A stretch of DNA of 64,000 bases, from NCBI GenBank assembly GCA_039028615.1, contig JBCCHT010000024.1:64001-128000 (forward strand), given 5' to 3'. Below, one piece after another: positions 9,333-12,118 of this stretch. The notes under the pieces are model-generated. The model was not told the origin of the DNA and searched no databases. It was given only the letters and a program-made list of their open reading frames with translations. The DNA is from Myxococcota bacterium (GTDB lineage Bacteria > Myxococcota_A > Polyangia > Nannocystales > Nannocystaceae). How positions within the stretch are numbered: the stretch's first letter is position 1; every line of letters starts with the position of its first letter. A program made the translations under genes and the position numbers.

Positions 9333-10688
9333 TCAGAGCCCCGCGACCTTGCCTCGGTACCAGCGCTGGCCGGCGTGGGCGACCGCCTTGGCGACGTTCT
9401 TCCACTCGAGGTTCGAGGCCTCCAGCTCCAGCACGGACTCCTTTTTGACGTCTCGGCCGAGCCACTTGAGGAAGTCCCCCATGCGCCGCATGTCGAACTC
9501 GCCCTCGCAGGCCTCGGTCACACCCTGCTCGAGGCGAGGGACGGTGACGAACTGGTCGACGAAGGCCGCGGTGGAGGCCGAGACCTGCGGATCGACCCGG
9601 ACGGCCTTGGACTGCTTATTGACCCGATGGGCCTCGCCCTTGGCCTTGAACATCAGCTCGAAGTACGCATCGCGCTCGGTGCTGCCTCGCTCGTCGAAGT
9701 CGACGCCGTCGATGGGGTACAGGACCACGCCCTCACCCACACCTTCGACCCCGAACTCGGCCTGCACCCACGGGTCGACCTGCTCCACGGCGGAGACCAT
9801 CTCGTTGATCTTCGCCGCGCCTCGCTCCAGCCCGCTGTCGGAGTGGAAGTCGAGAGAGACGGTCTCGCCGTGCCAGGGCAGGACCCGCACGTCGGGGTGC
9901 TCGGGGAGCATCGCACGGATGCGATCGGGGTCGACGACCAGGCGGGCGTCGGCCTCGTTGGGATCGCCGAGCACGATGGCGAACACGGCGAAGATCTTCC
10001 GTTCGATCGAGGTGATGGCTACTTTCTTCTGGATGCCGGGACCACACCACTCGCCGTAGACCAGCACGCGGCCGTGCCGTTCGAAGAGCCCACCGAAGAA
10101 CTCGGCGGCCGAGCCGTGGACCCAGGCCGCAAAGCCGTAGTTGTCCTTCTCGGGGGTGATGAGCCGGGTTCGGCTCTGGGCGACGACCTTGCCCTCGCCG
10201 AAGACCTGAACCCCGGCATTGGTGCCGTCGAGCTTGATCTTGGCGCGGTAGCCCAGGGTGGGCGCGATGATGGCTCCGGGATCGAGCCGCACCTGCATGC
10301 GCACCCCCTTGCGGACCGCGGGTAGGCCTTCGATGCTGGCCCACTTCGCCATCTTGGCGCCCTCGGGGCGCGCGGGCGCGGAGGGCAGGGGAACCTCGAT
10401 CTGGCCGTGCTCGGCGTTCAGGTCTGTGCCGATCTCGGCGTCGGTCGGGCCGACGATCATGCCGTGCGAGTCGAGACCTCGCAGCCGGGCCCGGCGAATC
10501 TTGGTGCCGTCGCGCAACGTGGCGCCCACGCGGGCGACGGCCAGGACATCGCCCGGTGCGTATTCGCCTTCCTGGTTGGCCACGACGACCAGACCCTCGA
10601 TTCCCGGGGCCTCGAACCGGAGCACCCGCAGGGTGTCGGCATTGGGATGATCGTCGATTCGGACGACCCGCATTGCAATGATGGACAT
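9333..10688 (-). CDS. ATP-dependent RNA ligase (Rnl2-like) with an N-terminal tRNA-binding OB-fold domain
   Basis: N-terminal HPNADTL...IRRARLRGLDSHGM (PheT/Trbp-like OB fold); nucleotidyltransferase motifs I KLDGTN, III YGEWCG, IIIa FAVFAI, IV EGVVL, V FKAK; Rnl2-type C-domain (FVTVPRL...GRDVKKE). Ribosome-binding site AAGGA precedes ATG 10688. Confidence 0.85.
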   Translation of the reverse strand: MSIIAMRVVRIDDHPNADTLRVLRFEAPGIEGLVVVANQEGEYAPGDVLAVARVGATLRDGTKIRRARLRGLDSHGMIVGPTDAEIGTDLNAEHGQIEVPLPSAPARPEGAKMAKWASIEGLPAVRKGVRMQVRLDPGAIIAPTLGYRAKIKLDGTNAGVQVFGEGKVVAQSRTRLITPEKDNYGFAAWVHGSAAEFFGGLFERHGRVLVYGEWCGPGIQKKVAITSIERKIFAVFAIVLGDPNEADARLVVDPDRIRAMLPEHPDVRVLPWHGETVSLDFHSDSGLERGAAKINEMVSAVEQVDPWVQAEFGVEGVGEGVVLYPIDGVDFDERGSTERDAYFELMFKAKGEAHRVNKQSKAVRVDPQVSASTAAFVDQFVTVPRLEQGVTEACEGEFDMRRMGDFLKWLGRDVKKESVLELEASNLEWKNVAKAVAHAGQRWYRGKVAGL

Positions 10689-10735
10689 TGGAAACAGTCC
10701 TTTCTTCACTTCGCATTCGCCTCCGAAGGGGCGAC

Positions 10736-10770
10736 AAAAAAAAAGAGCCACCGGGTTTCCCTGGTGGCTC
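10736..10770 (-). terminator. Intrinsic terminator in the 5' leader of the RNA ligase gene (attenuator 3:4 hairpin)
   Basis: Minus strand reads GAGCCACC-A-GGG-AAA-CCC-GGTGGCTC then T9, about 50 nt upstream of the ligase ATG. Confidence 0.85.
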
Positions 10771-10797
10771 CACATGCCTCGAAACGGCCGAATTCGG

Positions 10798-10911
10798 TCA
10801 TTTACGAGTCAATGGGAGCCTCCACGGACATGGGTACATCGCACGACGTCCCTGGAGGGATGTCGAACGCGTGCGTCCTTGGGCGTAGGTCTTTTCCGAG
10901 CACGTCTTCAT
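10798..10911 (-). CDS. Putative 37-aa leader peptide (uORF) of the ligase attenuator
   Basis: ATG 10911 to TGA 10798: MKTCSEKTYAQGRTRSTSLQGRRAMYPCPWRLPLTRK. It overlaps alternative pairing segments and stops 27 nt before the terminator stem. Confidence 0.55.
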   Translation of the reverse strand: MKTCSEKTYAQGRTRSTSLQGRRAMYPCPWRLPLTRK

Positions 10912-10931
10912 GACGAGACTTTCCGACCCAT

Positions 10932-10960
10932 CGGATAGCAGGCAGCATTGTGACTGTCAA
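10932..10960 (-). promoter_or_regulatory. Sigma70-type promoter for the leader/ligase transcript
   Basis: Perfect -35 TTGACA (10960-10955), 17-nt spacer ending TGC, weak -10 TATCCG with an extended-10 TG. Confidence 0.55.
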
Positions 10961-10993: not shown

Positions 10994-12118
10994 ATGTCGA
11001 ACGCACCGTGGGTCGGGATCTGGAACAACGAAGCGCTCGGTATTCAGCTCTCGCTCGAGCTCGGCGGGACCTTCGGGTTCGTGGGGCCGACCGGATCGAG
11101 CACGGGTCGGTTCGAGGTGCGCGGCGATCAGCTGTGGTTTCAGGAAGCCAACGGCAACGTGCTGGCGTATCGCATCGCCAGGCTCGACGAGCAAACGATG
11201 GACTTGCTCGATGCGATGGGCACCATGCTGCACTACCGACGAAGCGCGGTGCCTTCGCTCGCGCGGGGGCAGGTGCTCGCCGAGGCGGGCGGGCTGCAGC
11301 TGACCGAAGGAGAGGTCGACGTCGGCCTCGATCTCGTTCGCTTGCTCATCGACACCGACCCTTCGGCGCAGGAACGCGAGGCGCTGACGCAGCACTCCGT
11401 CGACGACTTTCGGCAGCACCCGGCGGCGTTCCTCGAGCAGCTGCGGCAGATCGCGGCCAGCGTGCAGCAAGTCCGTGCGCTGCGAAACCCAACCGAGGTT
11501 GCCCTGGCTCGGCAGGCGATCTTCGCGAGCCTCTACGCTGCGGTCGAGCCGATGGAGCCCGCGACCCGCCCACCCTTGATGCAGGTGGTGCTGAGCCACG
11601 TGCAGGTGCGGGCCTTCGATCCGCGGACCCAGCTTCTGTGCACCAGCCGCGACTTGGCGGGCGCGGTGGCGCTGGCCGAGTTCGAGGCGATGCTGGCGGG
11701 GCGGCCCCTCGAGCTGACGCCGCAGCAACGCACCGAGATGGAGGCCGAGCTGGTCACCGCGTTCCAGACCGGCGGGCTCGAGGTGCAGCAGCGGCTGTGC
11801 GTGGCGGGGCCGATGTGGGCGATGACCGAGGCGAACTGGAGCCGCTTCGACGAAGCCCAGCGCGAGCAGCTGAGAGCTCAGTTCCGGGCGTCGTTCGGGG
11901 GTGGGGCGGCATACGCCGAAGTGCCGGGCGTGGAGGTGCCCGAGCCTGAGCCCGCGTCCGCCGAACCGCCGACGTCTGCCGTCGGTGATGCCTATGCGGC
12001 CCGCGTGAACGCAGAGACCTTTCGCATCATGCAGGAGATGTCACTTCAGCATCATGCGACCACGCTCAACATCATCGAGAACATGGGCGGCACGGGGAAC
12101 TACTGGGAAGTCGTGTGA
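10994..12118 (+). CDS. Hypothetical protein
   Basis: Long ORF with host-like codon usage; N-terminal beta-rich segment (WVGIW...GRFEVRGDQLWF), then a helical region. Start placed at ATG 10994 after GGAGGG. Confidence 0.6.
   Translation: MSNAPWVGIWNNEALGIQLSLELGGTFGFVGPTGSSTGRFEVRGDQLWFQEANGNVLAYRIARLDEQTMDLLDAMGTMLHYRRSAVPSLARGQVLAEAGGLQLTEGEVDVGLDLVRLLIDTDPSAQEREALTQHSVDDFRQHPAAFLEQLRQIAASVQQVRALRNPTEVALARQAIFASLYAAVEPMEPATRPPLMQVVLSHVQVRAFDPRTQLLCTSRDLAGAVALAEFEAMLAGRPLELTPQQRTEMEAELVTAFQTGGLEVQQRLCVAGPMWAMTEANWSRFDEAQREQLRAQFRASFGGGAAYAEVPGVEVPEPEPASAEPPTSAVGDAYAARVNAETFRIMQEMSLQHHATTLNIIENMGGTGNYWEVV

Follow-up and report, generated by a model that had tools for sequence, protein, structure and literature searches.

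A conserved leader ahead of an ATP-dependent RNA ligase gene in a Myxococcota bacterium, probably a ribosome-coupled attenuator

The trp, thr and ilv/leu attenuators of Escherichia coli combine a leader peptide, competing helices and an intrinsic terminator with a run of control codons. A stall-sensing attenuator of four segments with a leader peptide, PA5471.1, lies in Pseudomonas aeruginosa ahead of the RtcB-like gene armZ (PA5471). The promoter is constitutive, the 3:4 terminator forms after complete translation of the leader peptide, and termination is relieved by ribosome-directed drugs and tRNA defects (PMC12057347, PMC13041342). The whiB7/wblC leader of mycobacteria has a long and variable upstream open reading frame (uORF) whose efficient translation leads to the terminator and whose stalling leads to the antiterminator, the codon content of the uORF setting the signals that are sensed (bioRxiv 10.1101/2023.06.02.543512).

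A leader of about 270 bases, made up of a short reading frame and competing hairpins, precedes a gene for a predicted ATP-dependent RNA ligase in a Myxococcota bacterium. It occupies positions 10686-10960, minus strand, of the window, the 64,000-nucleotide stretch of contig JBCCHT010000024.1 that was analysed. It probably is (at a probability of roughly 0.7) a transcription attenuator coupled to the ribosome that would sense general failure of translation and control the ligase. By its layout and predicted folding it would work like the uORF stall-sensing attenuators of whiB7 and PA5471.1.

The locus resembles PA5471.1-armZ in its promoter, leader peptide, 3:4 terminator and RNA-ligase-like target. 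It differs in the target, an ATP-dependent OB + Rnl2-type ligase that is unrelated to RtcB and apparently monocistronic, and in uORFs of 32-48 codons that share no conserved peptide; the role demonstrated for ArmZ is MexZ anti-repression, unlike the one predicted for the ligase. Three homologous leaders (L003, L048 and L050; loci of the ligase family carry L numbers and contigs of the genome C numbers) behave like whiB7 in the ribosome model described below. Unlike whiB7, the target is an enzyme and not a transcription factor, the uORFs are not enriched in Ala (64 versus 55.9 expected, p=0.08) and this copy adds a helix between segments 1 and 2. Leader peptide, competing helices and terminator are common to the classical amino-acid attenuators, and a 1:2, 2:3, 3:4 series can be drawn here; unlike those attenuators, the leader has no run of control codons, its 1:2 helix is not conserved and its stop codon lies 3' of the antiterminator strand.

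Little is known of what bacterial Rnl2/Rnl5-type ligases do in the cell, and the roles of Rnl5 are called uncharted in PMC5397189. A stall sensor would point to translation damage as the trigger of this ligase, would indicate which conditions to test and would open the role of an RNA ligase that is so far unstudied to experiment. If the proposed reading is true, two unrelated kinds of RNA ligase, RtcB-like and ATP-dependent, would be under one kind of switch. Neither this leader nor any attenuator of an Rnl2-type ligase was found described in the literature searched, most subscription journals lying outside the search. The novelty is nevertheless less than an earlier note on this DNA implied, the RtcB-like armZ already having a four-segment stall-sensing attenuator (PMC12057347, PMC13041342). 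What is gained is a leader family absent from Rfam; the regulatory principle is already known and the kind of target is new.

Anatomy of the leader

The promoter, the 37-codon uORF and the terminator with its T9 tract lie on the minus strand where the earlier note had placed them, and the three pairings that it named are present in this copy, segments 1 and 2 matching at 10 of 11 positions (Table 1). The uORF has no run of one amino acid, as the note had also remarked, its longest run being 2; the longest runs are 2-3 in 14/14 uORFs.

Table 1. Features of the leader and ligase locus in the window, with loci of related leaders and RNAs in other sequences
Feature	Position	Strand	Basis or remark
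Sigma70-type promoter	10932..10960	-	-35 TTGACA 10960-10955, 17-nt spacer, extended -10 TG-C-TATCCG; from sequence
-10 hexamer	10937-10932	-	sequence
Inferred transcription start	near 10925	-	placed from the promoter
Weak SD of uORF, GGAAAG	10924-10919	-	sequence
uORF, 37 codons, without amino-acid run	10798..10911	-	sequence
Segment 1, anti-antiterminator	10848..10858	-	in MFE of full leader; pairs with 10829-10819
Segment 2	10829-10819	-	10/11 pairs with segment 1
Antiterminator 5' strand	10824-10812	-	predicted; partner 10775-10762
Segment 2 and antiterminator 5' strand together	10812..10829	-	inside last uORF codons; resembles terminator 3' arm
Inner hairpin	10778..10808	-	predicted in both states; holds uORF stop codon, stacks within antiterminator
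Segment 3	10775-10762	-	antiterminator partner of 10824-10812
Segment 3 and intrinsic terminator	10736..10775	-	stem 10770-10745, T9 10744-10736; -20.2 kcal/mol
Post-terminator hairpin	10734-10717	-	sequence, fold of leader
Ligase SD	about 10702-10698	-	sequence
Ligase ATG	10688	-	sequence; region with hairpin and SD 10686..10734
Ligase gene, 451 aa, apparently monocistronic	9333..10688	-	PF09414 over cut-off, PF01588 under cut-off
Ligase domains	residues 1-92 (OB), 112-356 (Rnl2-type nucleotidyltransferase), then helical C-terminal domain		structure model
Terminator after ligase gene	9280-9266		scanner call
Divergent ORF	10994-12118	+	start some 34 nt away from the -35 box
Convergent ORF, 536 aa	7653-9263	+	
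Leader-bearing loci	L001, L002, L003, L005=L053, L008, L009, L047, L048, L049, L050, L059, L074, L130, L131, L243		
5' RNA of about 65 nt, examples	L225:1455-1524, L227:2479-2548(-), L078:346-414, L082:1384-1455		

The -10 box has only three of six matches to TATAAT, and a scanner for consensus promoters and terminators called neither the leader promoter nor the leader terminator. The pattern TTGAC(A)-N17-TA with the TGC extension is kept in L002, L003, L048, L049 and L059. Between the terminator and the ligase ATG there is no promoter-like site here; such a site lies below or across the terminator in two of 15 leaders (L047 and L131) and in none of the other 13. Two further short ORFs of the leader (10831-10802, and one running from 10801 through the terminator) were set aside, as they are not kept and the other frames of the homologs are mostly free of stops there.

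The full leader is more stable than its shuffles (z -3.05, 0/200). Its terminator state (-70.7 kcal/mol) and its antiterminator state (-72.3 kcal/mol) are nearly equal, less than 2 kcal/mol apart. Inner hairpins are predicted in the homologous leaders too, with poorly conserved sequence.

Conservation of the layout and of its pairings

Loci of ligase homologs were compared at 87 non-viral and 71 viral sites with at least 300 nt of upstream sequence and at 8 more non-viral ones, some of them duplicates. At 16 of the 95 non-viral loci (15 distinct, listed in Table 1) and at none of the 71 viral ones, a start codon lies no more than 45 nt from the inferred transcription start and opens a uORF of 32-48 codons, whose stop is followed by a hairpin at a distance of 14-35 nt. 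A U-tailed terminator is present in 14 of the 15 distinct leaders, L074 being devoid of a U-tract, and L050 has a GTG start and no clear promoter. The upstream sequence of L004 and L052 is cut and their terminator kept, while L128, with a 27-codon GTG frame and no clear promoter, was counted only as a possible further case. L107 was excluded for having a terminator followed by its own promoter and no uORF, and L075 and weak hairpins for having no promoter-linked uORF. The uORF layout occurs in 15/15 leaders versus 6-16% of shuffles per locus (mean 9.6%), counts that overstate independence since the leaders were chosen by their terminator, partly by eye, and form about six related clusters. The leader is real and conserved.

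Most ligase homologs have no such leader, and the neighbouring ORFs differ between the loci that bear it. In a ligase tree built by a quick method (123 rows, L059 omitted as too short) it forms about six clusters, which lie to either side of the midpoint root, and strong branches force six or more label changes; such a distribution would mean either an old trait with frequent losses or more than one gain. Some of the ligases behind the leader have no OB domain. Three of five other genomes of the genus have full-length orthologs of the ligase, all three with the terminator. Further copies in the same genome were searched by blastn/nhmmer, by exact pattern and with a covariance model, and none was found; extra matches at C33, C9 and C1 and the pattern matches L214 and L219 were rejected as a coding stretch or ordinary gene-end terminators. 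The Rfam search that the earlier note suggested gave no match at gathering score within the window and none at E up to 1 in seven homologous loci (L002, L003, L048 and L130 among them), which leaves the leader uncatalogued.

The homologous uORFs code for unrelated peptides that cannot be aligned among the 15 distinct loci, and the body of the leader is not conserved in sequence. Their stop codons lie 14-35 nt ahead of the terminator. By eye, 5' leaders of at least 12 nt mostly carry an SD-like word in front of the uORF and those of 1-5 nt do not. In six close leaders, according to our reading of the alignments, a single frame is kept across the antiterminator despite lengths that go from 35 to 47 codons.

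The 8-bp stem of the terminator is paired at 96.9% over 12 leaders, with changes on both sides in two pairs, both from L008/L009. Its exact pattern was found in seven of 73 family genomes and stands ahead of the ligase in five of those seven. The duplex of the antiterminator strand with the terminator 5' arm has -18.9 kcal/mol here, and the 2:3 pairing beats shuffles (p=0.010); antiterminator strength reaches p<0.05 versus shuffles in only five of 14 leaders, and the energy of this copy is at the 25th percentile of 254 ordinary gene-end terminators of the genome. The best partner of the terminator 5' arm ends between -20 and +5 nt from the uORF stop in 11 of 14 leaders versus 21% of these 254 controls. 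A complementary strand of their own is found at the uORF end also in leaders whose terminator sequence is unrelated (L008, L009 and L130). A consensus antiterminator helix is shared by the six close leaders, with a change on both sides in only one of 16 pairs.

The helix between segments 1 and 2 is not above chance in this copy (p=0.289) and reaches p<0.05 in two of 15 leaders. It is real here and is not a conserved part. As it beats shuffles in so few leaders, the conserved core consists of the uORF end, the antiterminator and the terminator. Judged from these comparisons, the fourth segment appears to be local tuning and the core a stall sensor of whiB7/PA5471.1 type rather than a trp-type four-segment switch. 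The trp-type ribosome attenuation put forward by the earlier note is borne out as regards a uORF-coupled attenuator that is conserved in homologs; its four-segment logic does not extend to them. Conservation of the pairings, which the note proposed to examine, was likewise found for the terminator and for the placement of the antiterminator and not for the 1:2 helix, with little covariation in the antiterminator, and that of the uORF is one of layout and not of peptide sequence.

The ligase and its RNA-repair context

The structure model of the ligase (pLDDT 93.8) was compared with known folds. Residues 112-356 match T4 Rnl2 (1s68; Z 16.2, rmsd 3.3, 198 aligned), residues 1-92 a YtpR-type tRNA-binding OB domain (Z 13.8, rmsd 1.6, 90 aligned) and residues 1-355 NgrRnl, an Rnl5 ligase (Z 14.6, rmsd 11.4, 273 aligned). 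The OB domain is nearest to the tRNA-binding domains of YtpR and PheT. K152, E213, E319, K348 and K350 are invariant among homologs and correspond to the catalytic Lys, the Glu and the Lys-x-Lys; we take E213, E319, K348 and K350 to be the residues of ligase motifs III, IV and V. The nucleotidyltransferase fold and these catalytic residues are common to T4 Rnl2, and the fusion of an N-terminal OB domain to the adenylyltransferase is common to the Rnl5 ligases DraRnl and NgrRnl. Alignments to Rnl2 stop near residue 357. Residues 373-450 form helices and include R385 and D413, both of them invariant; about 90 residues extend beyond the adenylyltransferase domain, unlike in Rnl5 enzymes, which end there. 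The score for TIGR02307 (Rnl2) is 21.2 bits, under the cut-off of 197.15, and TIGR02306 (Rnl5) does not match this ligase and matches 25 of 71 homologs weakly; the protein is thus a hybrid and a formal member of neither family. The model presents it as an ATP-dependent OB + Rnl2-type RNA ligase of three parts.

The named homologs come from Myxococcota and cyanobacteria, with one of 54% identity in Paraliomyxa miuraensis. The two flanking ORFs have no Pfam or NCBIfam match, and no end-healing gene or tRNA gene adjoins the ligase here. A scan of genome contigs with the single ligase protein gave 12 loci, all weak or unrelated matches. The ligase family is common in viruses, where 217 stretches were confirmed; the 80 that were kept (L133-L212) are scattered through the tree and have no leader.

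Breaks left by most ribotoxins need end-healing before a ligase that joins 3'-OH to 5'-phosphate ends can seal them. The genome has a large RNA-repair set, with RtcB matches on five contigs (C4, C8, C16, C25 and C28), two more PF09414 genes carrying the ATP-dependent RNA ligase domain (C2 and C3) and a full Pnkp on another contig (C11). Attenuators ahead of the rtcB genes and of these two PF09414 genes were looked for by eye in seven upstream regions and in a genome scan, and none was found. Ligases of the class considered here seal 3'-OH to 5'-phosphate ends (PMC5397189).

Genes for tRNA stand beside the ligase homolog in four of 37 loci scanned. At L076 (999-3864) the ligase (43% identity over 305 columns) is directly behind a 15-tRNA array, at L046 (1274-2664) it has tRNA-Ala upstream and tRNA-His downstream, and at L045 (1534-2182) six tandem tRNA-Ser genes are on the opposite strand. 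In cyanobacteria, translational stress induces long tRNA arrays along with rtcB (PMC8421152, PMC10272220); by analogy, L076 may be cyanobacterial and its ligase co-induced. The ligase could be a dedicated tRNA-resealing enzyme in a feedback loop, where broken tRNA stalls the uORF ribosome and so induces the enzyme. The family would be tied to translation damage in three ways, by the attenuator in Myxococcota, by stress-induced tRNA arrays in cyanobacteria-type loci and by a two-hairpin 5' RNA in a sister clade. This reading is tentative, and we regard it as conceivable rather than probable. If true, it would give a bacterial ATP-dependent nick-sealing ligase a job in RNA repair.

Modelled switch, signal and alternative readings

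The ribosome was modelled as an unpaired block and the probability of the terminator calculated at equilibrium for each A-site codon in 14 leaders. In this copy the probability is 0.33 for naked RNA. It is 0.1 when codon 2 occupies the A site, 0.4-0.8 for codons 3-15 and about 0-0.2 for codons 16-25, where the ribosome lies over segment 1, and it stands at 0.9 once codon 30 is reached and up to the stop; five alternative footprints move the stall window by about one codon. The model supports, for this copy, the prediction of the earlier note that a ribosome stalled over segment 1 opens read-through. A clear switch, with a probability of 0.2 or less at some codon and 0.9 at the stop, is obtained in eight of the 14 leaders, this one included. 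L003, L048 and L050 adopt the antiterminated state by default, with no need of a 1:2 helix, and terminate only once the ribosome is in the last 7-9 codons; stall windows are modelled in L008, L009, L049 and L130, and L047 switches only partially in the equilibrium model. The remaining five (L002, L005, L059, L074 and L131) are terminated at every ribosome position at equilibrium, so that folding kinetics must be assumed for them. As long as the 3' arm of the terminator has not been made, the 5' arm pairs with upstream sequence at a probability of 0.61-1.00 in 13 of 14 leaders, any upstream partner being counted.

It is proposed that transcription would start from a constitutive promoter and that ribosomes would begin on the uORF without delay. 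A ribosome in the last 8-9 codons or at the stop would, in the model, cover the antiterminator strand, the terminator would form and the transcript would end near 10736. An earlier stall, brought about by an antibiotic, by broken or uncharged tRNA or by damaged rRNA, would leave the antiterminator strand free to pair with the terminator 5' arm while the 3' arm is not yet transcribed, and the polymerase would read into the ligase gene. The 1:2 helix of this copy would tune the switch to stalls at codons 16-25; other copies lack this helix or have it at another place. Once Pnkp has healed the ends, the ligase would most likely join 3'-OH to 5'-phosphate at breaks in RNA, probably tRNA.

Tyr codons are in excess in the uORFs (15 versus 5.5 expected) and present in 12 of 14, versus 4.6 expected, a level attained by 0/400 stop-free shuffles; Tyr is the sole enriched residue among the 20 tested on these related sequences. 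Counting L243, Tyr occurs in 13 of 15 uORFs versus 51% of 40-residue windows of real ORFs, and it is absent from L005 and L074. Here Tyr26 borders on the window of read-through in the model, and Tyr9 falls outside it. The idea that the uORF samples all amino acids was rejected, the presence of residues being the same as in shuffles (summed 205 versus 205). General stalling is still the best reading of the signal.

A leader without amino-acid run was also observed in this genome ahead of a DrrA-like ABC exporter ATPase gene (L260, G000:C7:268765-268981(+), with homologs L261-L264). It has a promoter, a uORF of 16-50 codons and a terminator, was found at 5/5 loci and is likely an antibiotic-sensing attenuator. 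Each of the five exporter uORFs, whose starts were chosen by eye, has exactly one Tyr and one Trp, and at least one Tyr codon occurs in 18 of 20 uORFs when the 15 ligase leaders and the five exporter leaders are pooled, versus 51% of real-ORF windows. As the exporter leaders share it, the trait belongs to no-run leaders generally and is not specific to the ligase, and this control weakened the candidate role of a tRNA-Tyr-specific ligase. The same genome has a classical attenuator with a Thr run before thrS (TIGR00418; G000:C15:223757-223620(-)) and a Val/Leu/Ile-rich leader (G000:C12:125240-125010(-)) before a gene of 287 aa that by eye is isopropylmalate dehydrogenase-like and has no NCBIfam match at 1e-20.

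The leader might function without sensing ribosomes, as a leaky terminator that dampens expression or as a stand-alone gene for a small RNA or peptide, the ligase being transcribed through a constant level of read-through or from a promoter of its own further downstream. Points in favour are the absence of a switch at equilibrium in five leaders, antiterminator energies within the range of ordinary terminators and the promoter-like sites of L047 and L131. We consider it unlikely in view of the 13 leaders, this one included, with no internal promoter-like site, of a frame and stop position that are kept while the peptide is not, and of an antiterminator strand that sits at the uORF end more often than in control terminators. 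Coupling to the ribosome could also serve a specific signal, such as tRNA-Tyr (or tRNA-Trp) being scarce or cleaved, or a drug that makes the ribosome arrest at an aromatic residue. The Tyr excess fits with this, and so do single codons setting the response in PA5471.1 and whiB7; the case is improbable when set against the Tyr and Trp of every exporter uORF, the lack of Tyr in L005 and L074, the position of Tyr26 and Tyr9 relative to the window and the number of residues tested on related sequences. A leader that binds a ligand instead, T-box-like with uncharged tRNA or autoregulatory through the OB domain of the ligase, is very improbable. The antiterminator strand has a GGTGG-like word that resembles the T-box sequence, and the sister ligase clade has a conserved structured 5' UTR in place of the leader. 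That word, however, is paired rather than bulged and copies the terminator 3' arm, Rfam gave no match, the body of the leader is not conserved and the leader is found also ahead of ligases that lack the OB domain.

Finally, the switch may operate as proposed and the ligase may seal nicks in RNA:DNA hybrids or ribonucleotide patches in DNA, as DraRnl would, rather than repair tRNA or rRNA. Loss of DraRnl sensitises to radiation and delays genome reassembly, linking an Rnl5 ligase to genome repair (PMC5397189), and the N-terminal OB domain and adenylyltransferase of the present ligase match NgrRnl over residues 1-355 at a site with neither end-healing nor tRNA gene beside it. This assignment has little likelihood given that the OB domain is closest to tRNA-binding domains, that the homologs of L076 and L046 are directly behind tRNA genes and that control by a ribosome sensor suits a substrate from translation better. 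Attenuation by general stalling ahead of an RNA-repair ligase is the reading preferred here.

In one ligase clade that has no attenuator, the 5' UTRs of OB-less homologs contain a conserved RNA of about 65 nt, which spans the stretch between the inferred transcription start and the SD (21 aligned; examples in Table 1). It is limited to this clade and gave no Rfam match in the three loci tested. Its first hairpin, of 4 GC-type bp, is invariant and is joined by a linker of conserved sequence TGG(T/C)GG to another hairpin, which shows covariation, five of its eight pairs being changed on both sides (18 cells, 0/500 shuffles). It is possibly an autoregulatory site or a substrate of the ligase.
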